The notes beneath the pieces were generated by a model. That model was not told where the DNA came from, ran no database searches, and saw nothing but the letters and a program-made list of their open reading frames with translations. A stretch of 48,272 bases of DNA from Parcubacteria group bacterium Gr01-1014_33 (GTDB taxonomy: Bacteria; Patescibacteriota; Minisyncoccia; Sungbacterales; HO2-52-23): assembly GCA_007376125.1 (NCBI GenBank), contig VMFQ01000016.1, positions 1 through 48,272 on the forward strand, read 5' to 3'. Shown piece after piece: positions 13,903 to 39,106 of this stretch; position 1 is the stretch's first letter; each line of letters starts with the position of its first letter. Made by a program: the position numbers and the translations under genes.

Positions 13903-15030
13903 TTATTCCACAGTCACTGACTTTGCAAGGTTCCGTGGCTTGTCTACGTCGTATCCCCTTAATACCCCGAAATGGTACGCAAAAAGCTGGAGCGGGACTA
14001 CCGCAAGAAGAGGATTTAGGATCTCAAGTGTACGAGGTATAAAAATAATGTCATCCGCAAGGTCCTTCATATTTTCATCGCCTTCAGTTGCGATCGCAAT
14101 AATCGGCCCCCTGCGCGCTTTTAACTCCTGTATATTAGAAAGCATTTTTTCGTATACCGAGTCCTGCGGCGCAATGCACACCGAAGGAAAATTTTCGTGA
14201 ATCATTGCGATTGGCCCGTGCTTCATCTCGCCCGCGCCGTATCCTTCCGCATGCACATACGAGACCTCTTTTAATTTAAGCGCGCCCTCGTATGCGACCG
14301 GCAAATTATATTTTCTTCCCAAAAAGAAAAAGTTCTCGGCATATTGATACTTTTGGGCGAGTTTCTGAACTGCATTGTTTTGTTGGAGAATGTTTCGCAT
14401 CGCTTCAGGGATGCGCGAAAGTTGATCTAAAATTTTTTGCCCATGGCCCCGACTCATACCACGCGCTCTGCCAAGCATAAGCGCAAACAAGGTTAAGAGG
14501 GCAACTTGCGAAGTAAACGCTTTTGTGGAAGCCACTCCTATTTCCGGCCCCACATGCTGATATACTCCCGCATCGGTTTCGCGGGCGATGGTAGATCCTA
14601 CCACATTGACAATTCCGAGCGTGGGAATGCCTGCTTTTTTTGCCTCACGAAGTGCTGCAAGAGTATCTGCGGTTTCTCCAGATTGGGAAATCGCCAAAAA
14701 AATATCTCCTTTCTGAAATACCGGACTGCGGTAGCGAAATTCAGACGCCACATCAATTTTTGCCGGAATCCCGGCACATTCTTCAAAGAGATACTCTCCT
14801 ATGCGCCCGGCAAATGCGGCGGTCCCGCAGGCGGAAATCAAAATACGTTTTGCATCTTTTAATTTGTCTTCCGCGTCCCGTAATCCTCCCAGCCGCGCGG
14901 TACCGCTTTCTTTTACCATCCGCCCGCGGATGGAGTTTTCAACTGCTTCCGGCTCTTCAAAGATTTCCTTGAGCATAAAATGCGGGTATCCGCCTTTTTG
15001 CGCGCGTGAGCACCGCAATCTCGCCATCAT
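13903..15030 (-). CDS. glmS: Glutamine--fructose-6-phosphate aminotransferase, SIS-domain part (frame-broken from the N-terminal part)
   Basis: KGGYPHFMLKEIFEEPEAV, two SIS domains, and C-terminal DKPRNLAKSVTVE. It is out of frame with 14957..15655. Confidence 0.85.
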   Translation of the reverse strand: MMARLRCSRAQKGGYPHFMLKEIFEEPEAVENSIRGRMVKESGTARLGGLRDAEDKLKDAKRILISACGTAAFAGRIGEYLFEECAGIPAKIDVASEFRYRSPVFQKGDIFLAISQSGETADTLAALREAKKAGIPTLGIVNVVGSTIARETDAGVYQHVGPEIGVASTKAFTSQVALLTLFALMLGRARGMSRGHGQKILDQLSRIPEAMRNILQQNNAVQKLAQKYQYAENFFFLGRKYNLPVAYEGALKLKEVSYVHAEGYGAGEMKHGPIAMIHENFPSVCIAPQDSVYEKMLSNIQELKARRGPIIAIATEGDENMKDLADDIIFIPRTLEILNPLLAVVPLQLFAYHFGVLRGYDVDKPRNLAKSVTVE

Positions 15031-15655
15031 CTAAATACACAATCTGCTTCGTGTGTGCGAGCAGGGCGGATGCGTCTGATGCGACAAAGTATTCTCCTTT
15101 GCCGATGCCTAACAAAAGCGGGCTAAAATTTCTCGCGGCGATAAGTTTCTCCGGCTCTTTTGCATACATAATGCAAAGACCGTATGTGCCGCGGATTTTT
15201 TTAAGGGTGTTTCTCGCCGCATCTTCAAACGGCGCGCCCCCAAGTTCTTCTTCAATCAAATGAGCAATAACCTCCGTATCGGTTTCGGACTTAAAGCGAT
15301 GGCCTTTTTGCAAAAGTTCGTTTTTTAATTCCCTGTGGTTTTCAATGATGCCGTTATGGACAAGCCAAATTTCGCCCTTGCAATCGGAGTGGGGATGCGC
15401 ATTTTCTTCGGTAACCCCGCCGTGCGTTGCCCATCGGCTATGCCCGATTCCGAGAGTTCCTTTCACATCGTCCGCGTTCAGCAATTTTTCTTCAAGCATC
15501 GCGATTTTTCCCAATGCTTTTTCGTAAAACACGCTTTTGTGTTTGCATACGGCAACGCCCGCGGAATCATATCCGCGGTACTCCATTTTTTTTAGCCCTT
15601 CCATGAGAATCGGAAGCGCGTTTTGTTTTCCGATGTATCCGATGATGCCACACAT
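14957..15655 (-). CDS. glmS: Glutamine--fructose-6-phosphate aminotransferase, glutaminase (Ntn) domain part
   Basis: Starts MCGIIGYIG (catalytic Cys2), with GIGHSRWATHG and LVHNGIIEN. The frame ends shortly after LDDGEIAVLTR. Confidence 0.85.
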   Translation of the reverse strand: MCGIIGYIGKQNALPILMEGLKKMEYRGYDSAGVAVCKHKSVFYEKALGKIAMLEEKLLNADDVKGTLGIGHSRWATHGGVTEENAHPHSDCKGEIWLVHNGIIENHRELKNELLQKGHRFKSETDTEVIAHLIEEELGGAPFEDAARNTLKKIRGTYGLCIMYAKEPEKLIAARNFSPLLLGIGKGEYFVASDASALLAHTKQIVYLDDGEIAVLTRAKRRIPAFYAQGNL

Positions 15656-16395: not shown

Positions 16396-19300
16396 TCAAA
16401 CTACAAAATTGATAAGCTTATTCTGGACAAAAATAATTTTCTTCGGCTCTGTGGTAAGAAACTTTCGGACTTGTTCAATTTGCATTGCGGCATCTTTTGC
16501 CTCTTTTTCTTTGGCACCCATCGGAAGTGTTGCGCGCCCGCGCAATTTACCGTTTACTTGGATCACGAGTTCAAACGTGTCTTCTTGAATGAGCTTCGGA
16601 TTGTATTTAGGCCACAGCTCAAGATGAATAGACCGAAAGGTTGTAGGTTGTAGGTTGTAGGTTGTAGAAAAAATTCTTTGCCACAATTCTTCAGAAATGT
16701 GTGGCGCAAAAGGCGCAAGAAGTTTCAAGAAAACGTTTATATCCTCTCCGCTCACCTTCTCCTTGTTTGATTCAAACTCATTTAACAAAACCATAAGCGC
16801 CGAGATCGCGGTGTTGTATTGCAAATTCTCAATATCTTCGGTAACTTTTTTGGTTGTCTGATGCAGTATCTTTTGTATTTTTGATTTGGGATTTGGGACT
16901 TTTTTGGAAATTGGGATTTGGGATCTGAGATTTTGCGAGATTTGTACCTGACCAAACCTCCAGACGCGCTCAAGAAATCTGGTGATCCCCTTTATGCCCG
17001 TATCGCGAAAATCTCCCCCCTGTTCAAACGGCCCCAAAAACATAAGATACATCCGCAGAGCGTCCGCGCCGTAGGCGCGGATGTATTCATCCGGATTCAC
17101 GACATTCCCTTTGGACTTGGACATCTTGGCGCCGTCTTTGATTAAGAGGCCGTGCGCGCGAAATTTCGCAAACGGCTCTTCAAAGTGCGTAAGCCCCCAG
17201 TCGGAAAACACCATCGCGAGAAACCGCGAATACAAGAGATGCAGGACCGAGTGCTCCGCGCCGCCGATATACATGTGCACCGGAAGCCATTTTTTTGTAA
17301 TTGCCGGATTCCATGGTTTTTTCTCCTCGCGAACCGATGGATAACGCAAAAAATACCAGGCAGAATCCAAAAACGTATCCGAAACATCAGTTTCCCGCCT
17401 TGCCCACGATTTGCACTTTGGGCAACGGACTTTATAAAACCTTTCAACTGATGCAAGGGGGGATTTTCCCGTGCCCGTAGGACGAAATTTTTTAATGTAG
17501 GGCAACCGCACCGGCAAGTCCTTTTCCGGAACAGGATGCCATCCTAATCCGTCCGAAGTCGGACTTCCATCGGAAGTCCGACTTCGCTTTGCGCAATTTT
17601 CGCAAAAAATCATAGGAATTGGGGGCCCCCAGTAACGCTGGCGTGAAATCAGCCAATCGCGAAGGCGGTAATGTACAGTTCGTTTCCCTTTCACAAATTT
17701 CGTAATCTCCCATTTTGCTTTTTCAGAGTCCGTACCGGTAAATTTTCCTGAATTTATCAAAATGCCGGAATTTGTATGCACGCGTTGATGGAAAATTGAC
17801 GGGGCACTCGTCGTATCATACCTAAGCTCAATGGCGCGTCCAACTGCTTGCTTTAAAAAACGAATCCAATGATCATGTTCGTGATTATAGTTGTTCCGCT
17901 CTAGGTTCTCGAGAATTTCTCCTGCACTTACCCACTCCACTATGAAGTCTTCGTGTGTCTCAAGTTTTTGTTCCTGAACTGCAGTTGTTTTTAGTATCAC
18001 TAAAAAGCAGGTTGCCTTGGCAAAACGATCCACATTGCGAGGAATATTGTGATAATGAGCAAATGCCGTCTCAATCTGTTCAACATGAACGAAATCATAA
18101 TATCCGCTTTCCTCTTTTATCTCCCGCAAAATTCCTTTTTCAATATCTTCCCCCTCCTCTACTCCTCCGGAGAATAGTCCGTACCATTCTCGTTCTCCCT
18201 TTTTCCAATGGGCTATCGCATACTTTTGCGTTTCAGGATCAAAAACTACTCCGGAACCACCATCTCTGAATTCCTCTTTATTGCGTTTCTCGCCAGTTTC
18301 TGGAGCAACAATCTGACGAATCGGCAAATCAAACTTCTTTGCAAACTCAAAGTCGCGCTCGTCGTGTGCAGGAACTGCCATAATCGCGCCCGTGCCTATA
18401 TTACCCAGAACATAATCTGCAACCCAAATTGGAATCATTTCCCCATTTGCCGGATTGATTGCTTTTACTCCTTTTAGTTCAACTCCGGTTTTTTCTTTGC
18501 TCGCGGCAATTCGCTCTTCTTCAGATTTCGATTTCGCGTTTTGGATGTATCCTCGGACTTCCCCATAATTCATAATTCCTGATTCCTGATTCATCAGCAT
18601 CGGATGCTCCGGCGCCACCACCAAATACGTCGCCCCGAAAAGCGTATCCGCCCTTGTGGTAAATACCTCAATAAACGCTGACTCACGCTGACTGGACGCG
18701 GACTTACGCAGAATTTCCGTGTTAGTCCGCGTCGTGTCCGCGTAGTTCCGCGAGAGAGCGAACTTTATAAGTGCGCCCTCCGATCTCCCGATCCAATTCC
18801 TCTGCGCGATTTTTATCCGCTCGGACCAATCAATTTTTTCTAAATTCTTCAAAAGCCGTTCCGCATAATCAGTAATCTTAAAAAACCACTGCTCCAAATC
18901 TTTTTTGTGGACTTTTGATCCGCACCTCTCACATTCCCCGGAAATCACCTGCTCATCCGCAAGCACTGTTTTGCACGAAGGACACCAATTTACGGCTTGC
19001 TTCTTTCTATATGCGAGACCCTCTTTAAAGAGCCGCACAAAAATCCATTGAGTCCATTTATAGTATTCGGGATCGTACGTTTCAAGCCGCTCTTGCCACG
19101 CAAAGCCGTTTCCGATCATCTGGAGCTGGCGATAAAAATTCTTTTCGGTGATCCGCGAAAGTTCCATCGGATGTTTTCCGATTTTCAACGCATAATTTTC
19201 AGAATGTATTCCAAACCCGTCCAGCCCAATCGGCTCAAATACATCATACCCTTGCATCCGCTTAAAACGCCCATAAATATCCGCGCCGGTAAATGCATAC

Positions 19301-19485
19301 ATATTTCCCACATGAAGCCCTTCCGCCGATGGGTACGGAAACATCATGAGGTTATAAAATGGCTTTTTTGCGCGCGTCCCTATTCCGCGTCTTCGTGGTC
19401 GGGCAAGTAAATCCGGCTCATAGATTTTTCCCTTAAGCCAACGCGCTTGCCATTTGGATTCAATTTTTTGAGGGAAGTAACGCAT
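16396..19485 (-). CDS. leuS: Leucyl-tRNA synthetase with a nested Nudix domain and several short insertions
   Basis: HIGH-type motif PYPSAEGLHVGN, CP1 motifs TTRADTLFGATY and GTGAIMAVPAHDERDFEFA, RLRDWLISRQRYWG and KMSKSKGN. Start chosen at MRYFPQKIESKWQ. Confidence 0.9.
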   Translation of the reverse strand: MRYFPQKIESKWQARWLKGKIYEPDLLARPRRRGIGTRAKKPFYNLMMFPYPSAEGLHVGNMYAFTGADIYGRFKRMQGYDVFEPIGLDGFGIHSENYALKIGKHPMELSRITEKNFYRQLQMIGNGFAWQERLETYDPEYYKWTQWIFVRLFKEGLAYRKKQAVNWCPSCKTVLADEQVISGECERCGSKVHKKDLEQWFFKITDYAERLLKNLEKIDWSERIKIAQRNWIGRSEGALIKFALSRNYADTTRTNTEILRKSASSQRESAFIEVFTTRADTLFGATYLVVAPEHPMLMNQESGIMNYGEVRGYIQNAKSKSEEERIAASKEKTGVELKGVKAINPANGEMIPIWVADYVLGNIGTGAIMAVPAHDERDFEFAKKFDLPIRQIVAPETGEKRNKEEFRDGGSGVVFDPETQKYAIAHWKKGEREWYGLFSGGVEEGEDIEKGILREIKEESGYYDFVHVEQIETAFAHYHNIPRNVDRFAKATCFLVILKTTAVQEQKLETHEDFIVEWVSAGEILENLERNNYNHEHDHWIRFLKQAVGRAIELRYDTTSAPSIFHQRVHTNSGILINSGKFTGTDSEKAKWEITKFVKGKRTVHYRLRDWLISRQRYWGPPIPMIFCENCAKRSRTSDGSPTSDGLGWHPVPEKDLPVRLPYIKKFRPTGTGKSPLASVERFYKVRCPKCKSWARRETDVSDTFLDSAWYFLRYPSVREEKKPWNPAITKKWLPVHMYIGGAEHSVLHLLYSRFLAMVFSDWGLTHFEEPFAKFRAHGLLIKDGAKMSKSKGNVVNPDEYIRAYGADALRMYLMFLGPFEQGGDFRDTGIKGITRFLERVWRFGQVQISQNLRSQIPISKKVPNPKSKIQKILHQTTKKVTEDIENLQYNTAISALMVLLNEFESNKEKVSGEDINVFLKLLAPFAPHISEELWQRIFSTTYNLQPTTFRSIHLELWPKYNPKLIQEDTFELVIQVNGKLRGRATLPMGAKEKEAKDAAMQIEQVRKFLTTEPKKIIFVQNKLINFVV
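16639..16667. repeat. Tandem heptamer (GGTTGTA)x4 inside leuS
   Basis: Four perfect 7-nt units. Encodes TTYNLQPTT. Confidence 0.85.
16883..16944. repeat. Degenerate heptamer tract (GATTTGG-type) inside leuS
   Basis: gatttgggatttggga ... attgggatttgggatctgagattttgcgagatttg. Encodes QISQNLRSQIPISKKVPNPKSKIQ. Confidence 0.6.
17534..17586. repeat. Compound palindrome inserted in frame in leuS
   Basis: GGATGCCATCC, then GAAGTCGGACTTC and GAAGTCCGACTTC. Encodes RSRTSDGSPTSDGLGW between CENCA and HPVPEKDLPV. Confidence 0.6.
17790..18298 (-). other. Nudix hydrolase domain nested in the LeuRS CP1 domain
   Basis: Perfect Nudix box GGVEEGEDIEKGILREIKEESGY (Gx5Ex7REUxEExGU). It lies between the LeuRS segments FDLPIRQIVAPE and NSGILINSGKFTG. 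Confidence 0.7.
18565..18592. repeat. Tandem heptamers ATAATTC x2 and CTGATTC x2 inside leuS
   Basis: Direct reading. Encodes NQESGIMNY. Confidence 0.75.
18694..18733. repeat. Hairpin-forming insertion in leuS
   Basis: GACGCGGACT (18694..18703) pairs with AGTCCGCGTC (18724..18733). It lies within a ~75-nt extra segment encoding RNYADTTRTNTEILRKSASSQRESA, ahead of IEVFTTRADT. Confidence 0.5.
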
Positions 19486-19492
19486 AAAATAT

Positions 19493-19521
19493 AGTGTAGC
19501 CGCAATCCCTTGGCTTGACAA
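19493..19521 (-). promoter_or_regulatory. Sigma-70-like promoter for leuS, implying a near-leaderless mRNA
   Basis: Minus strand: TTGTCA-17 nt-TACACT, then 7 nt to the ATG at 19485. No SD sequence. Confidence 0.4.
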
Positions 19522-19588
19522 GCCGCGCATAGAACTTTATGGTAGACGTAAATAGTTCTCTTTTTTTCAGCATTGTGGGAGGAGTCGT

Positions 19589-19978
19589 ATGAGCGCGCAC
19601 CCCATAACAATTTCTCAAGCGTACCGCGTCTATCAAGAGGTTATCGCTATTGTCTCACAGAATCCCATCCATACAAGCGATCTATATAAAATAGCGGTGA
19701 GCGCCGAATGTGTGCAGGAAACACTCAATGGGAGCAGATACAAAATAGACATTGCAGAACTCGGAACAGCGGATAAAGAAGCAATATATCGCCTTGGAAC
19801 GAGAATCCCCGTGTCGGTGCAACATTATACCGCCTGCCTTCTCATCTACGATTTAGGGCGATGGGAATGCTATGTGCAGACTCAATTTTCCATAAGAACA
19901 TATCGCAACTTTCTGGTGGAACTCCATCCCGATGATATCGCGTTTCTCACAGATACCGCGCATCCCAAAGCAGTATAG
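19589..19978 (+). CDS. Hypothetical protein (129 aa)
   Basis: ATG preceded by GGGAGGAG. No recognisable domain. Confidence 0.5.
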   Translation: MSAHPITISQAYRVYQEVIAIVSQNPIHTSDLYKIAVSAECVQETLNGSRYKIDIAELGTADKEAIYRLGTRIPVSVQHYTACLLIYDLGRWECYVQTQFSIRTYRNFLVELHPDDIAFLTDTAHPKAV

Positions 19979-19998
19979 AGTTTTAAGAATCCACAGAA

Positions 19999-20943
19999 TC
20001 ATTCTCTGGCTATAGCAAGTCCAAAGAGAGAGAATGTATTTTTTACAGTGGTTTCGCTGACATTGTTCAGCGAAACTTTTTTTATTTCCGCCATCTTTCT
20101 TGCCACTTCACTAATATACGCAGGTTCATTCCGTTTCCCGCGATACGGCGCGGGCGTTACATACGGCGCGTCTGTTTCAAGCAAAATCCGATCAAGCGGA
20201 ATAAACTTTATAACCTCTTCGTAGTCGCTTGCCCCGTTAGAGGCCCGCGCTGAAGGCGCGGCAGTCGCTTCTGGCGACTTGCCTCTAACAGGGCGCGCGA
20301 ATGTGATCACCCCTCCGAAAGAAAATGAAAACCCGAGATCAAGAAGTTTCCGCGCATCATCCACAGTGCCGGTAAAGAAATGGATCACGCCGGGGTTAGG
20401 AAGTAGGTTAGAGGTAGTAGGTTGTAGGATTGAAATCAGGTCAGAAAATGCATTCCGGCAGTGAACCATCAATGGTTTTTTCACATCCGCCGCAAGTTCA
20501 ATTTGTTTTAAAAATACATCTTTTTGTTTCTCTTTCGTCTCCTCGCTTAAACGGTAGTAATCAAGTCCGCATTCCCCTATCCCCACAACTTTTGAATCTT
20601 CGGCTAAATTTTTGTAATACTCGTAGTCAAACTCTTCAGCTCGAGAAGTAAAACCTTTTTCCTCTCCGACATTCTCATATTCTTGAGAATATGGGAATGT
20701 TCCGAGCTCCTGCTCATCGTGATATGATTTTTCCGTATGAATAGGATGGAGACCGACCGTTGCATACACTCCTTCCGAATATCTGTGCGCGGTCTCAATC
20801 GCAGATTTTGAAGTATCGCGCTGGGTGCCCACGTTTATCATCCACACCCCCGCATCCAACGCGCGCCGAATAACCGTATCCCGATCATCGTGGAATGCGG
20901 CAAATTGAGTATGGGTATGGACATCAAATAATCGCGGAGTCAT
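19999..20943 (-). CDS. tatD: TatD-family metal-dependent hydrolase/DNase
   Basis: LFDVHTHTQ (HxH), GECGLDY and LLETDAPYVTPAPYRGKRNEP. Start chosen at MTPRLFDVHTH. Confidence 0.85.
   Translation of the reverse strand: MTPRLFDVHTHTQFAAFHDDRDTVIRRALDAGVWMINVGTQRDTSKSAIETAHRYSEGVYATVGLHPIHTEKSYHDEQELGTFPYSQEYENVGEEKGFTSRAEEFDYEYYKNLAEDSKVVGIGECGLDYYRLSEETKEKQKDVFLKQIELAADVKKPLMVHCRNAFSDLISILQPTTSNLLPNPGVIHFFTGTVDDARKLLDLGFSFSFGGVITFARPVRGKSPEATAAPSARASNGASDYEEVIKFIPLDRILLETDAPYVTPAPYRGKRNEPAYISEVARKMAEIKKVSLNNVSETTVKNTFSLFGLAIARE
20232..20293. repeat. Cloverleaf-like palindromic element inserted in frame in tatD
   Basis: Outer arms CCCCGTTAGAGGC/GCCTCTAACAGGG. Inner hairpins CCGCGC-TGAAG-GCGCGG and AGTCGC-TTCTG-GCGACT. 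Encodes the extra PVRGKSPEATAAPSARASNG. Confidence 0.65.
20394..20428. repeat. Degenerate heptamer tract (NNGTAGG x5) inside tatD
   Basis: ggttagg aagtagg ttagagg tagtagg ttgtagg. Encodes LQPTTSNLLPNP. Confidence 0.7.
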
Positions 20944-21108
20944 ATAATCAGCAATGGTGCGGTCCCGATTTTTTGTCCACAAAAATCGAGGATCCTCGAT
21001 TTGCTCTGCCAATCGGGATAAATTGGGTGTGGGCATGGATGTCAAACAAGAACGGCGTAGACATTCATGTTGTATAAGTATACACTAAATTAGTAAATCT
21101 TAGAATGA

Positions 21109-21684
21109 GTGTTTATGGAAAAATTTGAAGGAAGAAAGCAAATGGAATTAGAAAAACCTCCGTTTCTCTATCACGGATCTCCTAATCGAAACATTCAAGG
21201 GTTTGAGCCGCGCACCAGCAGTGGGACAGGAGAGAAATTAGGAACACAAGTGTATGCGTCTCAAGACATGGCAGTTGCTTCTATATTTTTATTAAACCCA
21301 GAGCGGACTTGGTCTGCGGGAAAATTTAATGATGTACTTTTCGCAGTCATACCGATAAACCGGGATGAGTTCATTAAAAACGATAAAGGCGGATGTATCT
21401 ATGTACTTCCGAGTGATCACTTCGAATCAGATCCGAAACATGGTATGGGAGAATATGAATGGCATTCTCCCCAAAAAGTAAAACCGATTAAAAAGATGCA
21501 ATTTTCTTCTGCTCTTGATGCGGCCATTCAAAATGGAGTTCAAGTATATTTGGTAGATAAAGAGACCTTCCAACGCATTGAGAAATCAAAAGATCATGGA
21601 CTGTTGATCCTACAAAAACTGGAATCAGAAAATCAAAGAAGAGGGATAAATATAAAATCATTACACGCTACTACCAATTCATAA
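21109..21684 (+). CDS. Hypothetical protein (191 aa)
   Basis: Long ORF on the opposite strand to its neighbours, with PPFLYHGSP near the N-terminus. No family recognised. Confidence 0.5.
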   Translation: MFMEKFEGRKQMELEKPPFLYHGSPNRNIQGFEPRTSSGTGEKLGTQVYASQDMAVASIFLLNPERTWSAGKFNDVLFAVIPINRDEFIKNDKGGCIYVLPSDHFESDPKHGMGEYEWHSPQKVKPIKKMQFSSALDAAIQNGVQVYLVDKETFQRIEKSKDHGLLILQKLESENQRRGINIKSLHATTNS

Positions 21685-21710
21685 TCGCGGGAATAAACCC
21701 CCCGCTTTTT

Positions 21711-22093
21711 CTATTTCCCAATGATCCGATATTCTCCTTCTCTAATCAGAACAAGCTTGCCAGAAAGATTTTTTCCCGCTCTTAACAGCTTTAACAAATA
21801 TGCAAGAGCATTCAGAGGACTCTGGTTTCGCAACCGGATTAAAATGACGCCCGGATGAGTTCTTACTGGGAAACGAACCAGATTTCCAAAATCTTTATCG
21901 TGAGTCACAATAATCCGTCTTTCGCGCCGCGCAAATTCCATAATATCCTCGTCCGGTCTTTCCTCGTACCCGACACTTCGGGACGCATGCCTGAAGCAAG
22001 TAACTCCAAAATAAATTCTACCGATATCCTGGTCCCTTTTATGATCGGTTTTCCTTGAAGAATATTTGGATTAAACGTAATTCTATTTTCCAT
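21711..22093 (-). pseudogene. Degraded DUF433 antitoxin / DUF5615 toxin pair fused by an internal deletion
   Basis: The DUF433 N-terminus NPNILQGKPIIKGTRISVEFILELLASG runs, with a frame change, into a DUF5615 C-terminal half DEDIMEFARRERRIIVTHDKDFG...GVILIRL. The DUF433 tail and the DUF5615 head are missing. Confidence 0.55.
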
Positions 22094-22123
22094 GCTTCAA
22101 TTATATCCAAAGTAGTATAGAAA

Positions 22124-22213
22124 TCAAGTGTGTAAAATAACCGCATCCTGATCCTCGCAAAATGCGGCAAATTGGGTATGGGTGTGGACGTCAAAAAATG
22201 ATGGATTAGACAT
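22124..22213 (-). pseudogene. tatD: tatD 5' remnant (about 27 codons)
   Basis: Encodes MSNPSFFDVHTHTQFAAFCEDQDAVILHT-stop, against intact tatD ...RLFDVHTHTQFAAFHDDRDTVI. The DNA match gcggcaaattgggtatgggtgtggacgtc parallels 20895..20925. Confidence 0.75.
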
Positions 22214-22281
22214 GTTATTTTCATTATGCTACTGTTCTTATAAAGTCGTTCTTTAATAGAAAGTACAAGGAGGATGTAAAA

Positions 22282-22434
22282 ATGGCGAAGTCAAAATTTG
22301 CTTTAGGATTATTGAAAAAATTTGGACAATCAAAAGTCCTTTGTGGATTTAATGCCACCAGAAGTAAATGTCGCGCCAAGATAAAGGAGTCTAATAGAAA
22401 AATGAGGCGAGGGAAATATCCTTCTTTGCGATAA
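22282..22434 (+). CDS. Small basic protein (50 aa), hypothetical
   Basis: AGGAGG lies 7 nt upstream of the ATG. MAKSKFALGLLKKFGQSK...RRGKYPSLR. Below the ORF-track length cutoff. Confidence 0.35.
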   Translation: MAKSKFALGLLKKFGQSKVLCGFNATRSKCRAKIKESNRKMRRGKYPSLR

Positions 22435-22454
22435 TAAAATTAAAACAGTCTGCC

Positions 22455-23930
22455 TTACGACGACAACCGCGGGAATAATATCCCCGCTTTTTTTATTTTC
22501 AAGACCGAATTTTCAAAAGAAATTTGTTCGCGGATTTTTTTTGTCGTATCCGGTAAAAACGGCTCAAGGAGATTTGCGATTTCAAGGATAGCCAGCGAAA
22601 GATCTATAATCACCTGCGGCTTTTCCTGTTCCCACGGCTTTTCCTCGTTGATATATTTATCCGCCGCTTTGATAATTTGCCATACATATTCTAATGTGGA
22701 ATGGAACCGAAATTCGCGCATTGCAACCTCGTAATTTTCTCGGACCTCTTGAATAATAGTAACTAATTCTTGATTTGTGATTTGTGATTCGTGATTTGTG
22801 ATTCGCGCCTTTTCCCCAAGCGCCGCCACGCGCGCCACCAAGTTCCCCAGTCCGTTTGCAAGGTCTCCGTTATACCTATCCTCAAACTTTTTGTAACTAA
22901 AATCACCATCTTCCCACGCGGGAATTTCACGCAGGAGATAATAGCGTACCGGATCGGTGCCGTATTTTTCAACAAGTTCAATTGGATCAATCACGTTACC
23001 GAGCGTCTTTGACATCTTTTGCCCCTCAACCGTAATATACCCGTGCACAAAAAGGGTTTTGGGAAGTTCTAATTTTGCCGAAAGAAGAAACGCGGGCCAA
23101 TACACCGCATGGAACCGTGTGATACCTTTTCCAATCACATGGAGATCCGCAGGCCACCACTTTTGGTACGTCGCCTCATCCCAGCCAAAACCGATGCCTG
23201 ATTGATAAATATTTAATGCGTCAAACCATACATATATCTTTTGAGTATCGTCTCCCGGCACCGGCACGCCCCAATTTTTTGCGCGCGCGTTTGAGCGAGA
23301 AATGCTTAAGTCCTGAAGCGGTTCTCTCAAAAATGCGAGCATCTCGTTTTTGCGTGTTTCAGGGATTATTGTAAGTGTGTCCGAAGCAATAAGCCGGATA
23401 AGATCATCCTGATAGCGAGAAAGCCGGAAAAAATAATTTTCCTCGGAGACGATATCAAGTTTTCTCCCCGGATGTTCAAAACATTCGCCGTTTTTACCTA
23501 ACTCGTCCGGAGTATAAAACATTTCGCATCCCACGCAATAAAGACCCTCATACATTTTTTTATAGATATCTCCGTTTTGCGCGCATAAGCGCCACAACTC
23601 TTGGCTTGACGGATAGTGGTGATCTTTGTCGCTTCCTTTTTGAAAAACGTCAAATTGGACATTGTAGCGGCGCGCAAGATCCAAAAAGAGTTTTGCGTTT
23701 TCATCAACAAAATCCTGTACATCTCTGCCCGCCTGCTCTGCCGCCTGAACATTTTTAAGCGCGTTTTCATCGCTTCCGCAAAGGAGGAGTGTTTCTTTCC
23801 CGCGCATGCGCTGGTAGCGAGCGATGGTATCGCTTTGGACAAATTCCAGCGCGTGTCCAATATGCGGCTTTGCATTCACATAGGGAATGGCGTTTGTGAT
23901 ATAAAATTTTTTTGCGGTCTCTTTCTTCAT
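22455..23930 (-). CDS. metG: Methionyl-tRNA synthetase
   Basis: YITNAIPYVNAKPHIGHALE (HIGH-type) and KMSKTLGNVIDP. Confidence 0.92.
   Translation of the reverse strand: MKKETAKKFYITNAIPYVNAKPHIGHALEFVQSDTIARYQRMRGKETLLLCGSDENALKNVQAAEQAGRDVQDFVDENAKLFLDLARRYNVQFDVFQKGSDKDHHYPSSQELWRLCAQNGDIYKKMYEGLYCVGCEMFYTPDELGKNGECFEHPGRKLDIVSEENYFFRLSRYQDDLIRLIASDTLTIIPETRKNEMLAFLREPLQDLSISRSNARAKNWGVPVPGDDTQKIYVWFDALNIYQSGIGFGWDEATYQKWWPADLHVIGKGITRFHAVYWPAFLLSAKLELPKTLFVHGYITVEGQKMSKTLGNVIDPIELVEKYGTDPVRYYLLREIPAWEDGDFSYKKFEDRYNGDLANGLGNLVARVAALGEKARITNHESQITNQELVTIIQEVRENYEVAMREFRFHSTLEYVWQIIKAADKYINEEKPWEQEKPQVIIDLSLAILEIANLLEPFLPDTTKKIREQISFENSVLKIKKAGILFPRLSS
22771..22805. repeat. Tandem heptamer (TGATTYG)x5 inside metG
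   Basis: tgatttg tgatttg tgattcg tgatttg tgattcg. Encodes ITNHESQITNQ. Confidence 0.85.
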
Positions 23931-23957
23931 ATATGTACTTGTATCTTATCCGAAAAT

Positions 23958-24695
23958 TTATGGTTTTTCAAGGTTAAAAATATGGTCTCCGCTTTTGATC
24001 GCAAATCGTTCTGCCGCGCTCCCGCCTTGCACCACAATTTCAAGAAACCGATTTTCTCCCACGCCCGAACTTCCTCTGATACACGCGCTTGCCTGATCCG
24101 GCACATCTTTTAGGCGGGCAATATACGGAAGCGCGCCCCATAGCGTTTCTATTGTCTTGCCTTGTGTAAAATCTATTTCGCGCAGAAGAAGCGTTGTCTT
24201 GCAATTGCCAAAGTTATCTACCCACCAGACCATAGGAAGCATATCAGGAATTTTATCAATTGAGCAAATATCTCCCGGAAGATCGTGATGGGCGAGAAGA
24301 TACGCCGCAATCCGCGGAAGAAAATCATAACTGCGAAATTGTGTTTCCGCGATATAATGCTTACTGTGTTCCACTGCTAATCCAGATTTTACGAGTTCTT
24401 CTATTGCCCGCGCAGTGTCAATAATGCGGAGGGATGCGGCCAATCCGAGCTTTTTTACAAGCGAGAACGTGATGTCGTCAATTGTCCCCACGACAAGCGT
24501 TTCTCCATGCCAAAAGTAGCCGAAAGGGCTTCCGTTTTTCCATTTCTTCGCATTGCCATGCCGTGGGGCTACATTAACCAAGATCGCGCCTTTGCGTCCC
24601 TCAAGCGCGTCAATAAGATTACCCGCCGCCTCTCCATCGTCTGTTACGCCGATAAACGCAACCGCAGAATCAAAAAGACTTGAAACACGCGCCAT
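23958..24695 (-). CDS. DUF62-like protein (SAM hydroxide adenosyltransferase / SAM-cleaving family), tentative
   Basis: VWWVDNFGNCKTT and C-terminal GENRFLEIVVQGGSAAERFAIKSGD resemble the DUF62 C-terminal barrel. The N-terminus LVNVAPRHG is divergent. Confidence 0.4.
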   Translation of the reverse strand: MARVSSLFDSAVAFIGVTDDGEAAGNLIDALEGRKGAILVNVAPRHGNAKKWKNGSPFGYFWHGETLVVGTIDDITFSLVKKLGLAASLRIIDTARAIEELVKSGLAVEHSKHYIAETQFRSYDFLPRIAAYLLAHHDLPGDICSIDKIPDMLPMVWWVDNFGNCKTTLLLREIDFTQGKTIETLWGALPYIARLKDVPDQASACIRGSSGVGENRFLEIVVQGGSAAERFAIKSGDHIFNLEKP

Positions 24696-24808
24696 TTGCC
24701 TACCTGCGGCATTTGCGTCGCGACAATCATTAATTACTACCGTGCTTATAAATAAAAAACCTCCGGACGGAGAAAATTTTTACTGTTTCTCGTAAAGAAA
24801 AACAAAAA

Positions 24809-24874
24809 TTACCCCACGTGGAAGAGGTTCATCATCCGCATCATCATCATCATCATGGAATTTTTGTTATCCAT
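24809..24874 (-). promoter_or_regulatory. Candidate leaderless Met-rich leader peptide MDNKNSMMMMMMRMMNLFHVG
   Basis: ATG at 24874 lies 7 nt after a -10 box. The tract is (ATG)6 CGG (ATG)2. A weak hairpin plus T-tract follows (24751..24772), then the DUF62-like gene and metG. Confidence 0.35.
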
Positions 24875-24881
24875 ATTAAAC

Positions 24882-24910
24882 ATGGTATCGCAATTCTAAA
24901 ATCAAGTCAA
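24882..24910 (-). promoter_or_regulatory. Sigma-70-like promoter upstream of the Met-rich peptide
   Basis: Minus strand: TTGACT-17 nt-TACCAT. Confidence 0.35.
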
Positions 24911-24968
24911 TTTCCTAGAGAAATAGACGCTCCCTTTGCATCTTCAGCAAACGAGAATCTCCACACAA

Positions 24969-25388
24969 TTATTTCCGTTTTCTGTGCCAATACATTGCGC
25001 CGAGAAGTCCTCCGAGCGTATCAAACATAAGATCACCAATATTGTCCGCGTATGTCATAATGCTTGCCTGACCGAGTATGAGTACCTGATAGCGATCAAT
25101 TATGAGTTCGTACCATTCCCATAACACACCGAGCACTATGGCACCCGCAACGTAGAGCGCGATTTCCATCCAGAAAGGAATTTCAATGCGATGCGAGAGC
25201 CGCGCGTACGAAACAAGCTCCCGAGTGAAAAAAAATGCGTACACGCCCCCGACAATATGCAACACATTGCTTATTTCCCATGCGGTCCACGATTGAGGAT
25301 TGATAGTCCAGACAAGGATATAGGCGCTTAGCACGATACCGCCCCCTACCCCCAGAAGAGAGTAAATCTTTTTTTTATGAGGTTGCAT
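24969..25388 (-). CDS. Membrane protein (139 aa), hypothetical
   Basis: Four predicted hydrophobic helices. No motif recognised. Confidence 0.55.
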   Translation of the reverse strand: MQPHKKKIYSLLGVGGGIVLSAYILVWTINPQSWTAWEISNVLHIVGGVYAFFFTRELVSYARLSHRIEIPFWMEIALYVAGAIVLGVLWEWYELIIDRYQVLILGQASIMTYADNIGDLMFDTLGGLLGAMYWHRKRK

Positions 25389-25537
25389 GTCTGCTATTGA
25401 CCTTTCACAGTTACCTTAACGCAGGGAGGTTCAAAAATGGCTTATTTTAGGGATTTTTTAAGATACGACTTGTTAAGCTGATAGTGAAAGATCAATAAGA
25501 TATAGAACTTTCGCGTTTGATGAAAATCACGAACGTT

Positions 25538-25616
25538 TGTCATTCCCGTGAAAGCGGGAATCCAGTGTTCATGCTCTATACGGTGTTTCTGGATTCCCGC
25601 TTTCACGGGAATGACA
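25538..25616. repeat. Nested inverted repeat (two 27-nt arms, each itself a hairpin)
   Basis: GTCATTCCCGTGAAAGCGGGAATCCAG (25538..25564) and its exact reverse complement (25590..25616). It lies immediately downstream of the AI-2E gene stop. Confidence 0.8.
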
Positions 25617-25643
25617 GTAAACGCGTAAGTCCTAAGATATTTT

Positions 25644-26687
25644 CTACTCCGGCATCAATGCGCGTTTCTTTTTATCCCAATCGTCCAGAAATTCCGCCCC
25701 AATCGCCGTAAGCGGAACCGCAAGGAGAATTCCGAAGATGCCGCCGAGTTTCCCGCCCACTAAAAGTGCGAGCACGACGATCAATGGGCTTAGTCCTATT
25801 GCTTTTCGCATAACCACCGGCACGATTATGTGGCTTTCCATCTGCTGCACCGCAACAAAGAGAATCGCCGTGGATATACCGAGCAAAGGCGAGGCAAGAA
25901 ACGCGGCAGACACCGCGGGGACCGCGGCAAGGATAGGGCCTACAACCGGAATAATTTCAAACACCGCGGAGAGAAGCGCGAAAAGGAGCGCATACCGTAC
26001 GCCAAGCATCGTGAGTCCGAAGAAAATGAAAAATCCGACTATCGCGCCGAGAAGTATCTGCGTTTGAAGCCATCGCCCAAGTTTTTTTTGCGCGCGCGTC
26101 CAAAGATCCAATACATACGGCTCTTGGTCCAGAGGCGTTACAAGCCGCAAGAAACTTTCAATTCCTCTCTCTTGCGCCGCAAGATAAAACGAGAATACAA
26201 TAATCAGCGCAAATGAGAAAATGCCTCCGAATATCCCTGCCGCAAAATTAACCACGCCTCCGCTTATCTTGCCGGCAAACTCCGTAGGGATACGGAAAAA
26301 TAAATCGGCGTTATCGGAAAGAAACGGAGTAAGAGAGAAAAATCCAAGGTGTTCAATTTCCGTCAAAAATTGGGATTGGAGCGCGGGAAATGTGGTACTC
26401 ACTGTTTGAAGCTCCTCCGCAACCAAAGGAAAGATGAGATAGATGATAAATGCGGCAAACGCGGCAAGCCCGATATATATCAAAAGCGCGCCCAAAATTC
26501 GCGGCACCTTTCTTTTTTGGAGCCAGCGTATCGCCGGCTCAATGGCGGATGCCACAATCACGGCGAAAATCAACGAGAATATAATGTCGCTTATGTAGTA
26601 CACCGCGGCAAGCGCAATAATGATTGCAAAAAAACGAAGAAAGGTCGCGGTAGAGATATTGAGATAGTGTGATTCTTTCTGGTTCAT
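25644..26687 (-). CDS. AI-2E family transporter (PerM/UPF0118)
   Basis: 347 aa, about 8 TM helices, with the typical IPVVGPILAAVPA and GGIFGILLAVPL segments. Confidence 0.8.
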   Translation of the reverse strand: MNQKESHYLNISTATFLRFFAIIIALAAVYYISDIIFSLIFAVIVASAIEPAIRWLQKRKVPRILGALLIYIGLAAFAAFIIYLIFPLVAEELQTVSTTFPALQSQFLTEIEHLGFFSLTPFLSDNADLFFRIPTEFAGKISGGVVNFAAGIFGGIFSFALIIVFSFYLAAQERGIESFLRLVTPLDQEPYVLDLWTRAQKKLGRWLQTQILLGAIVGFFIFFGLTMLGVRYALLFALLSAVFEIIPVVGPILAAVPAVSAAFLASPLLGISTAILFVAVQQMESHIIVPVVMRKAIGLSPLIVVLALLVGGKLGGIFGILLAVPLTAIGAEFLDDWDKKKRALMPE

Positions 26688-26702
26688 AGTAAAAAACTTG
26701 AT

Positions 26703-27971
26703 CTAAAAAGCGCCGAGAATTTTTTGAAACATCTCCTTATCCTTACACGGCCCGATCATCGCAAGATGCAGTTTCTCCGGACGCATGAGTTCTCGCGAAA
26801 CCTCTCGGATATCCTCGGCAGTTACCCCGTCAATTTTCGCAAACACTTCTTCCGCAGTCATTGGTTTTCCGGTGATCATCTCCTCGGTCCCCACGAAACT
26901 TGCCACCGCGTTTGATTGCTCAAGCCCGATTAACGTAGTGCCGCGGATATAGTTTTTTACGCGTTTTAATTCTTCCTCCGACACAAGTTCTTGCGTTATT
27001 TTTTTATATTCCTCAAGCGCGGCTTGGATTGTTTTCTCCACGTTTTTATGATCCACTCCCGCGTACGTTACCAATTGCCCTCGGTTTGAGTACGACTCGT
27101 GGCTTGTCCATACGGTGTAGGCAAGTCCCAGTTTTTCCCGAATTCTATCCCACATGCGCGCGCTCCACGATCCGCCAAGGAGCGTTGCGAGGACATCCGC
27201 GGCATAGCGTTTTTCATGGAACGCATCGTACCCGTGGAATCCGAGCGCAATATGCGTCTGATCCGTCTCTTTATACTCAAGCGCAATACGCTCCGCGTCC
27301 GGCTCCCGATATTCGGCTTTTTTCCGAAACGGCGCATCATGCCGGATACCGGAAAAAAGTTCCTTTATCTTTTGAAATGTTTTTTCCTCATCAAAGTTTC
27401 CGGCAACCACCACCGCGGTGTCTCCCGCCACATATTGATGATGAAAATAATTTACAAAATCGTCCCGCGCAAGCCCGCGGATAACTTTTTCTTCTCCGAT
27501 CACGTCGCGTCCCGCTGGCTGATCTCCGTATAAGAGCCGTTCCCATACCCACCAAATATAGAGCGTGGGCGTGTCGCGATCTTTATGCATTTCTTCTATT
27601 ATTACCTGCCGCTCGCGCTCAATTTCTCCTTCCGTAAGGAGAGAATTATTATAAATATCGGCAAGCAAATCCAAAGATTGGTCAAGATATGTTTTCGCGG
27701 CCTTTATGTGATAACCCGTAATTTCGTGCGATGTAAACGCGTTTGAAATGGAACCCATGCTGTCAAGCTCGTGTTTAATCTCATCCGGCGTGGGACGGTT
27801 TTTCGTGCCTTTAAAAAACATGTGCTCCAAGAAATGCGAAATTCCGTTAATCTCGCGCGATTCATAATCCGATCCAGTGCCGCACAAAACAAGTATGGTT
27901 ACCGTATTTGTCCCCTGCATGGGCGCAGTAATAATCCTCAAACCATTGTCTAACGTAGTTTTTTTAAACAT
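26703..27971 (-). CDS. M16-family (pitrilysin/insulinase-like) zinc peptidase
   Basis: Inverted zinc motif HFLEHMFFKGT (HxxEH). Confidence 0.85.
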   Translation of the reverse strand: MFKKTTLDNGLRIITAPMQGTNTVTILVLCGTGSDYESREINGISHFLEHMFFKGTKNRPTPDEIKHELDSMGSISNAFTSHEITGYHIKAAKTYLDQSLDLLADIYNNSLLTEGEIERERQVIIEEMHKDRDTPTLYIWWVWERLLYGDQPAGRDVIGEEKVIRGLARDDFVNYFHHQYVAGDTAVVVAGNFDEEKTFQKIKELFSGIRHDAPFRKKAEYREPDAERIALEYKETDQTHIALGFHGYDAFHEKRYAADVLATLLGGSWSARMWDRIREKLGLAYTVWTSHESYSNRGQLVTYAGVDHKNVEKTIQAALEEYKKITQELVSEEELKRVKNYIRGTTLIGLEQSNAVASFVGTEEMITGKPMTAEEVFAKIDGVTAEDIREVSRELMRPEKLHLAMIGPCKDKEMFQKILGAF

Positions 27972-27993
27972 AGAGTTACACGCACCGTCCTAT

Positions 27994-28365
27994 TTATATC
28001 TCTACTAGACCAAGACTAATTTTAAGCGCACCACCAACTCGAATCATGGTATCAGATGTGATCATGCCTACGCGCCGGATTAAGCGTACGTTATCAATAG
28101 TGCGTATCTGATTGAGAAGTATTGCCGATTCTTCCGTTAATCCCCCTTCGCCTCTCTGGACTAATACTTCCGTAGGATAGAGCGGTGGATTAAATTGTGA
28201 AGTGACCGCCGCAACGATGGTTACAGGACTATGTGCATTTGCCACATCATTTTGAAGAATGAGTGCAGGACGAGTTTTTCTGATTTCCGCGCCAAGAGTA
28301 GGATCAAAATTCACCAGCCAAATTTCACTCCGCCGTGGCGTACTTATTTTCTTCTTTTTTTCCAT
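27994..28365 (-). CDS. mazF: MazF/PemK-type mRNA interferase toxin
   Basis: RSEIWLVNFDPTLGAEIRKTRPALILQND and LNQIRTIDNVRL. Confidence 0.85.
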   Translation of the reverse strand: MEKKKKISTPRRSEIWLVNFDPTLGAEIRKTRPALILQNDVANAHSPVTIVAAVTSQFNPPLYPTEVLVQRGEGGLTEESAILLNQIRTIDNVRLIRRVGMITSDTMIRVGGALKISLGLVEI

Positions 28366-28601
28366 ATATCATGAAGAGAGGACCATTCTTGGGCGATTCC
28401 AAGATCCCGTTCGGCCCTCCGAAGCGCACCCTCACGAAGTTGTTTTCGTATTTGCGCGCGCCCCATCTCTCGGATATAAAATCGGATCGCCTCATCAACA
28501 AGACGACTCCGCTCACCCCGCTCTGCTACCTTATCAACAAGTCGTATAGCCGTGGGAGAAAGGGTAATATTAACCCTTTTATGTGTTGCTAATTTATTCA
28601 T
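28344..28601 (-). CDS. Ribbon-helix-helix antitoxin partner of MazF
   Basis: KRVNITLSPTAIRLVDKVAE (RHH beta-strand plus helix). It overlaps the mazF start by 22 nt. Confidence 0.7.
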   Translation of the reverse strand: MNKLATHKRVNITLSPTAIRLVDKVAERGERSRLVDEAIRFYIREMGRAQIRKQLREGALRRAERDLGIAQEWSSLHDIWKKRRK

Positions 28602-28611
28602 AATTCTAGTA

Positions 28612-28630
28612 TACACACTGATAGTGTGTA
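28612..28630. promoter_or_regulatory. Palindromic candidate operator overlapping the TA promoter
   Basis: TACACAC-TGATA-GTGTGTA lies 11 nt upstream of the antitoxin ATG. TATACT -10-like hexamer is adjacent. Confidence 0.4.
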
Positions 28631-28720
28631 GTCAACCGTATTCATACACAGGTTTGATTCCAGTCTCGATCCAAATCCTCATTATTCTCTTTGCAAGGTG
28701 TACCTTCGTTCATGATACTA

Positions 28721-30100: not shown

Positions 30101-30205
30101 TATATCCTCCATATTGCCCACTCTATCAGAAAACCTTGAAGAAATAAAGGGCATACACGAGACCGCCAATTTTGATGAATCTACCGCCGCTGATACTCTC
30201 TTCAT

Positions 30206-30235
30206 AAAAAAACGCCAACCACAATGGATCGGCGT
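30206..30235 (-). terminator. Rho-independent terminator ending the J-domain operon
   Basis: Minus strand: ACGCCGA-N10-TTGGCGT followed by TTTTTTT. Confidence 0.6.
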
Positions 30236-30255
30236 ATGACCTGACTCAATTTATC

Positions 30256-31551: not shown

Positions 31552-32217
31552 TTATTCCTCCTCCTCGTTATGTTCCCATGTGGATGAAGACGCAAACGAA
31601 GAGAGAAGTGTAATTATATCATCAACACAACTCACATTGGGGAGAGCGCAATTTTTACTGCCGTTAGCGGCGATATCGGCAACGTTTTTGACAATGACCG
31701 CAAATGCTTTGCGATGAGACATCTTCATCCGTCGTTCTTCCATGATTTCATCCAGAGATTCGGCAATCATGGAAAGTATATCTTCCGCATCTTCACCATA
31801 TGCTTGCACTAAATGAGCGGCAGTGCGCCATCCGATAAAGTATCCTTGTTCTTTCTGCCAATGTAAAAGATTCATCGTAAGAGAAAGCTGATCAATGATT
31901 TTCTCGCCTTTATTGGAATAAATATTTTCACCCAACTTGCGATCTTCAAGGTCGTGATTTGATAGCCACTGGCCATTTGTAAAGTAGAGATAAATACTTC
32001 TGAAAGTTTCTGGATGGAGAGGCACTCGCCAATCCACGGTAAGGTGAAGAAACATGTCCTGCTCAAGCTTTTGAGGCAATGCCTTTTGTACGCGAGCAAT
32101 AAGGGTATCCGCCTTCCAACCGAGTCGGTTTGACAAGGAACGCACGTTTGGGTCACTCGGAACAAGCGACACTCCTTCATTCTTTGTGATATACCAACGA
32201 TATTTTTCTTCTGCCAT
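31552..32217 (-). CDS. Hypothetical protein (221 aa) with an acidic C-terminal tail, coupled to the J-domain gene
   Basis: Its TAA stop abuts the next ATG (GAATAAATG). GGAGGAGGGG precedes its start. Confidence 0.55.
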   Translation of the reverse strand: MAEEKYRWYITKNEGVSLVPSDPNVRSLSNRLGWKADTLIARVQKALPQKLEQDMFLHLTVDWRVPLHPETFRSIYLYFTNGQWLSNHDLEDRKLGENIYSNKGEKIIDQLSLTMNLLHWQKEQGYFIGWRTAAHLVQAYGEDAEDILSMIAESLDEIMEERRMKMSHRKAFAVIVKNVADIAANGSKNCALPNVSCVDDIITLLSSFASSSTWEHNEEEE

Positions 32218-32264
32218 GGATCCCCTCCTCCAGAATTTATTATAATTTTAAGGAACTTGTGAGC

Positions 32265-32293
32265 ATAGTAACTCTTTATCCTCCCAATGTCAA
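32265..32293 (-). promoter_or_regulatory. Sigma-70-like promoter of the two-gene J-domain operon
   Basis: Minus strand: TTGACA-17 nt-TACTAT, about 45 nt upstream of the ATG at 32217. Confidence 0.45.
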
Positions 32294-32351
32294 GGTTTTG
32301 TGGTAATCTGTACCACTTCTCAATCTGCGTCCACAGGAAGAAAATACACAA

Positions 32352-34274: not shown

Positions 34275-34368
34275 AAACGTAACATTCCACAGGCGAATAT
34301 TGGCTTAAATAAGCCATTTCAACAACTCAAAATGTACGAATTTGTTTTGCGGGTGCTATAGTACCTAA

Positions 34369-34467: not shown

Positions 34468-34530
34468 CGGACTCGTAGTATAAGTATACACCTTTCGGAA
34501 CCCGTTTGAAAAGACGTTTCAGACGGTTTG

Positions 34531-35040: not shown

Positions 35041-35055
35041 AAGAAGATGAAGCAG

Positions 35056-39100: not shown

Positions 39101-39106
39101 AAACTC

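Follow-up and report, generated by a model that had tools for sequence, protein, structure and literature searches.

A Nudix domain nested within the CP1 editing domain of leucyl-tRNA synthetase in Patescibacteria

The leuS gene and its insertion

A stretch of 48,272 nucleotides from contig VMFQ01000016.1 of Parcubacteria group bacterium Gr01-1014_33, a small-genome member of the Patescibacteria, is referred to here as the window. Its leuS open reading frame (ORF; 16396..19530, minus strand) encodes a leucyl-tRNA synthetase (LeuRS) that contains a complete Nudix hydrolase domain inside the CP1 editing domain. The ORF list gives a product of 1044 amino acids counted from the first ATG. The probable true start is M16 (nucleotide 19485), where homologs begin with MRY.P.KIE (MRYFPQKIE.KWQ in this protein, hereafter the query), and the protein of 1029 amino acids in the initial annotation corresponds to that start. 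Assignment as LeuRS was made from the NCBIfam equivalog leuS_bact (TIGR00396), matched at 860 bits against a cut-off of 548.4, and from an AlphaFold2 (AF2) model.

Pfam searches place the editing domain PF13603 at residues 244-420, over profile positions 1-155 of 185 only, and PF00293 (NUDIX) directly after it at residues 428-544, with 36.9 bits against a gathering cut-off of 21.1 (E 4.3e-9). In a phmmer alignment with Thermus thermophilus (Tth) LeuRS (1h3n), the match breaks off at query residue 409 (Tth 363) and picks up again at residue 582 (Tth 374). The 172 in-frame residues between these points (410-581) occupy the place of a 10-residue loop of the Tth CP1 editing domain; the same anchors enclose 181 residues in the query and 20 in orthologs that lack an insertion. 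The nested module, delimited by the Tth alignment, Pfam, AF2 and Foldseek, thus covers 17788..18303. The initial annotation had proposed a domain insertion of about 170 in-frame residues at 17790..18298, and both figures agree with ours to within a few residues or bases.

The module consists of N-terminal strands, the Nudix core and a C-terminal two-helix extension. Its Nudix box, GGVEEGEDIEKGILREIKEESGY (residues 455-477; 18100..18168, from the translation), satisfies every position of Gx5Ex7REUxEExGU, as the initial annotation had read it, and is followed by a segment with a Tyr at +16 (..AFAHYHN..; 18040..18099, by hhalign to RppH). Across all six translated frames of the window, a relaxed form of the Nudix-box pattern is matched only twice, by the LeuRS insert and by one small Nudix ORF discussed below. 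All features of leuS given here lie on the minus strand.

Integrity of the synthetase

Upstream of the insert, the N-terminal part of CP1 (residues 244-409; 18304..18801, from PF13603 and the translation) includes a disordered filler loop of 25 residues (259-283; 18682..18756), visible as a gap in the Tth alignment with a pLDDT of about 55. The Thr-rich editing motif TTRADT (residues 291-296; 18643..18660) and the editing-site motif AHDERD with its conserved Asp residues (388-393; 18352..18369) follow in the translation. Downstream, where the Tth alignment resumes, the translated C-terminal part of CP1 (residues 582-622, ..NSGKFTG..VHYR; 17665..17787) leads back into the catalytic core. The HIGH-type signature reads HVGN (residues 73-76; 19303..19314), and KMSKS is found at residues 802-806 (17113..17127), both in the translation.

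The class I signatures and the CP1 motifs are all present in the query, and their key residues are conserved. Among 48 relatives, T291, T292, R293, D295 and T296 of TTRADT and D390, R392 and D393 of AHDERD are invariant, as are K802, K805 and S806 of KMSKS, with M803 and S804 nearly so; H73 and G75 of the HIGH-type signature are likewise invariant in relatives. The CP1 signatures are therefore intact on either side of the insert, as had been claimed. The TTRADT-type motif presumably has the role in post-transfer editing that the established LeuRS literature gives it. The full-length AF2 model (pLDDT 82, pTM 0.72) superposes through its LeuRS body on the Tth, Escherichia coli and Neisseria gonorrhoeae LeuRS structures with TMt of 0.78-0.84, values that place it within the LeuRS fold. 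Judged from their motifs, the synthetic site (HVGN, KMSKS) and the editing site (TTRADT, AHDERD) are both intact. Because these motifs are present and conserved and the model superposes on known LeuRS structures, we infer that the query still charges and proofreads tRNA-Leu.

Three peculiarities of the host were noted in passing. HVGN is the HIGH variant of this LeuRS clade, with Asn replacing the last His; HIGG or HIGA occurs in some relatives. The query has nothing that corresponds to the leucine-specific domain of Tth LeuRS (Tth 578-634, a stretch of about 55 residues before KMSKS), whose position is marked by query residues 797-799 (about 17130..17140). Finally, residues 643-658 form a stretch of 16 extra residues with low pLDDT.

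Fold and conserved residues of the nested domain

Structure prediction with AF2 for residues 405-585, run with 43 homologous inserts, gave, for the module in isolation, the alpha/beta/alpha sandwich of the Nudix fold with a pLDDT of 96.1 and a pTM of 0.91. In the full-length model the Nudix region is the most confident part (pLDDT 87-97), both junctions included. A Foldseek search of the PDB with the insert model returned 589 matches at E <= 0.001, and the top ones are all Nudix enzymes (probability 1.0, TMq about 0.6). The Pfam match, the pLDDT and the recurrence of the insertion at the same site in 58 of 120 LeuRS clusters (see below) agree with the initial annotation in pointing to a true domain insertion, rather than to gene decay or an ordinary variable loop.

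The 43 inserts are 21-53% identical to the query, and only six of their columns are invariant. Five of these belong to the box (its first Gly, the RE glutamate, both residues of EE and the next Gly), and the remaining one is a Trp close to the C-terminal strand. Such invariance across divergent inserts reads as the signature of selection on a metal-binding site. Since the metal-binding Glu residues are unchanged across very divergent copies, the module is probably catalytically active.

The G+C content of the insert (0.42-0.43) falls inside the range of the gene, and base composition along leuS shows no step at the insert borders and hence no sign of recent acquisition. A comparison of dN/dS between insert and host in 19 gene pairs found dS saturated in all but one near-identical pair. 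Pfam detected no intein or Hint family in the LeuRS protein. We considered an intein or mobile element and rejected it: there is no Hint domain, and the junctions, ..IVA|PETG.. and ..IFH|QRVH.., lack the Cys/Ser/Thr plus His-Asn pattern.

Nearest characterized Nudix enzymes

Searched singly against PDB sequences, the insert matched CTP pyrophosphohydrolase, NUDT7 and MTH1 with E values of about 1e-3, which are weak and generic. A profile of the inserts performed better, with the Enterococcus faecalis protein 2azw at E 2.1e-11 and the lupin Ap4A hydrolase at E 4.6e-9. Foldseek likewise ranked 2azw first, followed by many entries of E. coli RppH, including its Ap4A complex 7sp3. RppH also supplied the best NCBIfam models for both the nested and the free-standing forms of the domain. 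In hhalign, the insert profile aligned with E. coli RppH (a sequence verified to be identical to 6d13_B) with a probability of 94.5%, and the conserved Tyr 16 residues past the box fell on RppH Y77. We take a Tyr some 16-18 residues past the box to be the base-stacking mark of ApnA hydrolases and RppH, as in the Nudix literature.

The query insert scores 26 bits against the RppH equivalog NF001936, whose cut-off is 118. Profile and fold both point to RppH and the Ap(n)A hydrolases, with scores below every family threshold, and we claim no membership of either family. The module may nonetheless work like the RppH/ApnA-hydrolase branch, although its membership there cannot be demonstrated. Because the nearest characterized relatives are RppH and ApnA hydrolases, our leading guess, drawn by analogy, is that the substrates would be dinucleoside polyphosphates of the Ap4A type or 5'-triphosphate or Np4-capped RNA ends.

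Distribution among relatives

A search of 5.8 billion proteins showed that many Patescibacteria LeuRS, from Candidatus Sungbacteria and relatives, share the Pfam combination of the query. The variable sites of CP1 were measured in the 120 best LeuRS clusters. Two hot spots are apparent: site 1, at the start of CP1, which in the query holds only the filler loop, and site 2, the insertion point of the query's Nudix domain. Between them they accommodate from none to three Nudix and/or alpha/beta-hydrolase domains. Both sites are empty in 49 of the 120 clusters. Site 2 carries Nudix with nothing at site 1 in 41 clusters, the query among them, and Nudix accompanied by an alpha/beta hydrolase at site 1 in 17. 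The alpha/beta hydrolase stands alone at site 1 in 7 clusters, a Ser-type alpha/beta hydrolase stands alone at site 2 in 3, and one cluster has alpha/beta hydrolases at both; the remaining 2 clusters have some other sequence at site 2 and nothing at site 1.

The alpha/beta hydrolases (Ser_hydrolase, PF06821, or Abhydrolase), often with a GHSxG motif, are found at site 1 in P0003, P0029 and P0034 and at site 2 in P0018, P0046, P0048 and P0069. The LeuRS of P0121-P0130 contain two or three Nudix copies, in some cases distributed across the two sites; P0121, P0123, P0125 and P0127 have copies at site 1. When 1.84 billion representatives were searched exhaustively with a profile, 147 clusters matched at E <= 1e-30 and 821 at E <= 1e-10. 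LeuRS sequence flanks the Nudix domain in 112 of its best 150 representative clusters, and 30 others are short proteins of the free-standing form. The 1005-residue Nudix-bearing LeuRS P0009 was recovered as an identical protein in assemblies made independently (ENA/NCBI and Logan). For several TPA assemblies the organism labels ("Saccharibacteria", "Gammaproteobacteria") do not look reliable.

The same Nudix family was met in one other host. P0187 (1318 residues) is a Peptidase_M17 protein of the leucyl aminopeptidase family in which a GNAT, a Nudix and a second GNAT domain are nested and leave the peptidase in three stretches. The Nudix domain of P0187 is of the family of the LeuRS insert.

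NCBIfam has no model for LeuRS-Nudix, and NCBI names such proteins merely "class I tRNA ligase family protein". With names of this kind, leuS and ileS can seem to be missing from such genomes. Full-text literature searches turned up no paper in which LeuRS, or any other aminoacyl-tRNA synthetase, is said to contain a Nudix domain. The belief expressed in the initial annotation that no LeuRS of this architecture has been described therefore stands as far as these searches go; any implication of rarity does not, given that the insertion is widespread in Patescibacteria sequences. LeuRS-Nudix is thus common in public metagenome sequences, yet we did not find it described in the literature. Both folds, and extra domains in synthetases generally, are already known. 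In a 2026 survey of domain insertions, the LeuRS editing domain is an insertion-only module with zero instances as a host (PMC13114784). Here it is host to one to three further enzyme domains, and the query has Nudix inside CP1 inside a Rossmann fold.

Origin of the nested module

The nested inserts fall into two types: a long type, with about 160 extra residues and the C-terminal two-helix extension (HW..FL..V.RAIELGYD), to which the query belongs, and short types, which are more diverse. Mean identity is 67% for the host cores, 52% for the long inserts and 35% for the short ones. A genome scan with a profile of the long type, using one genome per GTDB species, identified at least 124 relatives, and the best 80 of these loci were analyzed. 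LeuRS contains the module at about 30 of the 80, and at about 50 it is a free-standing gene, roughly 165-200 codons long. Over the full length of the query module, the free-standing genes, which come from other Patescibacteria, show 47-59% identity to it. They have variable gene contexts, and no leuS was found within 4 kb of the free-standing copies.

A quick neighbor-joining (NJ) tree of 101 long-type modules (51 free-standing and 50 nested) separates the two forms with two state changes. The 80 loci come from 80 different assemblies, and in none of these sampled genomes, the best 80 of at least 124, were the free and nested forms found together. The nested module either descends from a free-standing Nudix gene of other Patescibacteria, about 170 codons long, or has one common origin with it. 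Because the clades are separate and the forms never co-occur in the sample, the pattern would be explained if a resident Nudix gene had been captured once into the CP1 loop and its fused version had taken the place of the free-standing gene. On an NJ tree of the host cores, presence of Nudix is clustered yet labile, with 24 changes; shuffled labels need 40 on average and at least 30. A single origin combined with 24 changes on the host tree implies frequent loss or exchange of leuS alleles. The nested copies form one lineage, as would fit a single capture followed by vertical descent and repeated loss.

Genomic context and neighboring genes

The gene order MetRS - TatD - LeuRS - small ORF - GlmS ... 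CofD - Sua5 - SHMT is conserved at four loci. LeuRS carries Nudix in the window and in an 804-kb chromosome of a metagenome-assembled genome (MAG), Ser-hydrolase plus Nudix on a Sungbacteria contig, and no insert in the complete 923-kb genome CP066690.1, where it is 808 residues long. Since the same MetRS-TatD-LeuRS-GlmS locus occurs with and without the insert, these synthetases are orthologs that differ in the presence of nested domains, and are not paralogs. The syntenic orthologous locus also favors the view that leuS of the window is an ordinary housekeeping gene of the organism.

Five aminoacyl-tRNA synthetase genes are crowded into a 25-kb part of the window (16396..41500): LeuRS, MetRS (22455..23930), a class II enzyme with an HGTP anticodon domain (28721..30205), IleRS and ArgRS (39788..41500). 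The IleRS (35153..38535, minus) contains the nested phosphatase reported in the initial annotation, a His_Phos_1 domain (PF00300, 110.5 bits) at residues 516-682. A nested His phosphatase was found in 118 of the 120 closest IleRS relatives, proteins of about 1150-1200 residues from many Paceibacteria lineages, which NCBI again names merely "class I tRNA ligase family protein". The window's IleRS is divided into two overlapping ORFs of 869 and 341 codons by a frame break at 35926..36178 (minus), shortly past KMSK; the first frame ends with ..LLSSPVVHWINGYSRGSIARIAK and a stop, and the expected LDQWILSRLN.. continues in another frame. This is a frameshift that is either real or an assembly error. 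GlmS (glutamine-fructose-6-phosphate aminotransferase; 13903..15655, minus) is similarly split into overlapping ORFs of 232 and 375 codons, at a position where relatives have a single gene of 613-614 codons, and represents a second apparent frameshift in 48 kb.

The small Nudix ORF mentioned above (45919..46143, minus; 74 codons) encodes a well-matching N-terminal half of a Nudix domain, with the box (..GHWDFPKGHIEKGETTEKTVRREVKEETGV..), and ends a few residues past the box, with a membrane-protein gene beginning 38 nucleotides downstream. It has the look of a Nudix gene left over after truncation, of a type unlike the LeuRS insert.

Function of the nested domain

The reading that we consider somewhat more probable than its rivals together is that the module is a catalytically active accessory Nudix enzyme tethered in a permissive loop of LeuRS. 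A resident free-standing Nudix gene would have been captured once into a surface loop of CP1, the fused copy would have replaced the free-standing gene, and it would often have been lost afterwards. The glutamates of REIKEE would hold Mg2+ and the enzyme would cut a pyrophosphate bond in a substrate of the nucleoside-diphosphate-X kind. The domain would ride in a loop of an essential, constitutively made protein and would not be an integral step of leucylation; any gain from nearness to LeuRS by-products would be secondary. We favor an accessory enzyme because many orthologs do without Nudix, because both CP1 loops also take unrelated alpha/beta hydrolases and extra Nudix copies, and because the same family is nested in the M17 aminopeptidase. 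The near-constant His phosphatase in IleRS of the lineage (118/120) and the absence of leuS linkage among the free-standing copies argue in the same direction. Taken together, these cases suggest that the lineage tends to nest small enzymes inside large proteins that are essential.

Several points weigh against this interpretation. Activity and substrate are predictions, and in one subgroup of short-type inserts the first Glu of the box is replaced by Gln and the Arg is lost, so that some copies may be impaired. RppH scores of 25-29 bits for the nested and free forms, against cut-offs of at least 116, are far below family level, and TM-scores of about 0.6 would fit any Nudix protein. The mutual exclusivity of the two forms was judged from the best 80 loci out of at least 124, in MAGs that are incomplete, and the host tree is a quick NJ tree, which makes the number of losses uncertain. 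The predicted rigidity of the junctions, the retention of the long-type module in many lineages and the lack of co-occurrence of free and nested forms in the sampled genomes would also fit a functional coupling with LeuRS.

Such a coupling, in which the Nudix domain clears Ap4A, Ap3A or other by-products of the synthetic site, or removes mis-activated adenylates as an additional route of proofreading, or acts on the 5' end of tRNA, is a minority possibility that we regard as unlikely. Aminoacyl-tRNA synthetases are known sources of Ap4A, and the nearest characterized relatives of the insert hydrolyze Ap4A and RNA 5' ends. In the tRNA variant, the 5' end of bound tRNA lies near the 3' end that visits CP1. 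The module is placed inside the editing domain with confidently predicted junctions. The separation of nested and free copies into different genomes among the 80 sampled gives a hint of the Rosetta-stone type, and the LeuRS and IleRS of one organism, both of class Ia, carry inserts of phospho(di)esterase type. Against these observations, orthologous LeuRS at the same locus are often without Nudix, alpha/beta hydrolases unrelated to it occupy the same sites, an M17 peptidase also contains this Nudix in nested form, and the free-standing orthologs are not near leuS. Aminoacyl-adenylates, moreover, are acyl-phosphates and do not contain the pyrophosphate bonds usual for Nudix enzymes. The initial annotation had offered action on Ap4A or adenylates as speculation, and the evidence is weak both ways: the relationship to RppH and ApnA hydrolases and the conserved Tyr speak for it, whereas the frequent absence of the domain, the unlinked free copies and the nesting in M17 speak against a role specific to LeuRS. 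We are equally doubtful of the broader proposal that the nested hydrolases (Nudix and alpha/beta hydrolase in LeuRS CP1, His phosphatase in IleRS) form a lineage-wide functional extension of the class Ia synthetases of Patescibacteria, with Nudix acting in cis on products or ligands of LeuRS.

Less likely still is that the Nudix fold is kept as a structural, tRNA-binding or ligand-sensing (NrtR-type) modulator of LeuRS without hydrolysis. The degenerate box of the short-type subgroup, the NrtR Nudix domains among the structural matches and the faster evolution of the insert relative to its host (mean identities of 52% or 35% against 67%) would suit a non-catalytic module. The perfect box of the query, however, the free-standing orthologs with the same intact box, and the invariance of the metal-binding Glu and box Gly in the query and 43 inserts in spite of their divergence all favor an enzyme.

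A chimeric assembly, a decaying gene or an ordinary CP1 variable loop is essentially excluded, even though the two apparent frameshifts (IleRS and GlmS) show that the assembly or the genome is not flawless, by the uninterrupted ORF, the repetition of the architecture in dozens of independent assemblies from several sources, the Pfam score and the pLDDT of the module, its unexceptional G+C content and the absence of an intein.

The pattern extends across many Patescibacteria lineages and to a second synthetase, IleRS, and may therefore be a trait common to these reduced genomes, whereby small hydrolases with housekeeping roles would be packed into permissive loops of essential proteins. Should the Nudix domain act in cis on Ap4A-type dinucleotides or on the 5' end of bound tRNA, aminoacylation would be coupled to nucleotide pyrophosphohydrolysis, a synthetase-linked clearance or signaling of a kind not known to have been described in bacteria and a directly testable tie between a synthetase and Ap4A or RNA-end metabolism.

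Comparison with known systems

The closest counterparts of the insert are the free-standing Patescibacteria genes, exemplified by L009:3986-4498 (a Nomurabacteria MAG) and L043:3989-4492 (a Zambryskibacteria MAG), which resemble it over the whole module. They share with the query an N-terminal E-x-G-x-KR-x-NEERRDGG strand, an intact Nudix box, the post-box Tyr and the C-terminal HW..FL..V.RAIELGYD helices; they differ in being separate proteins of about 165-200 residues, with variable neighborhoods and a clade of their own. The best match by both profile and fold among PDB entries is the E. faecalis MutT/Nudix protein 2azw (fold E 1.4e-9, TMt 0.72). It is 20% identical and is a structural-genomics entry without an assigned substrate, and no function can be transferred from it. 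E. coli RppH (NudH/YgdP), which acts as a pyrophosphohydrolase on RNA 5' ends and also hydrolyzes Ap(n)A, has a like fold (Foldseek E about 1e-8, TMq 0.56-0.61). Its identity to the insert is 16-19%, and it is free-standing and lacks the C-terminal two-helix extension.

Parallels to the combination of domains are found elsewhere. NadM-Nudix proteins of the Synechocystis slr0787 type join a HIGH-motif Rossmann nucleotidyltransferase, of the superclass of the class I synthetases, to a Nudix domain acting on a related nucleotide in one polypeptide. Unlike LeuRS-Nudix, they are end-to-end fusions and not nested, their Nudix domain is an ADP-ribose pyrophosphatase, and the host is not a tRNA synthetase. 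The IleRS with GNAT (NF040702, ileS_w_GNAT) and the IleRS-His_Phos_1 of the window differ from LeuRS-Nudix in host, guest fold and insertion site, but resemble it in being class Ia synthetases with a small enzyme domain inside.

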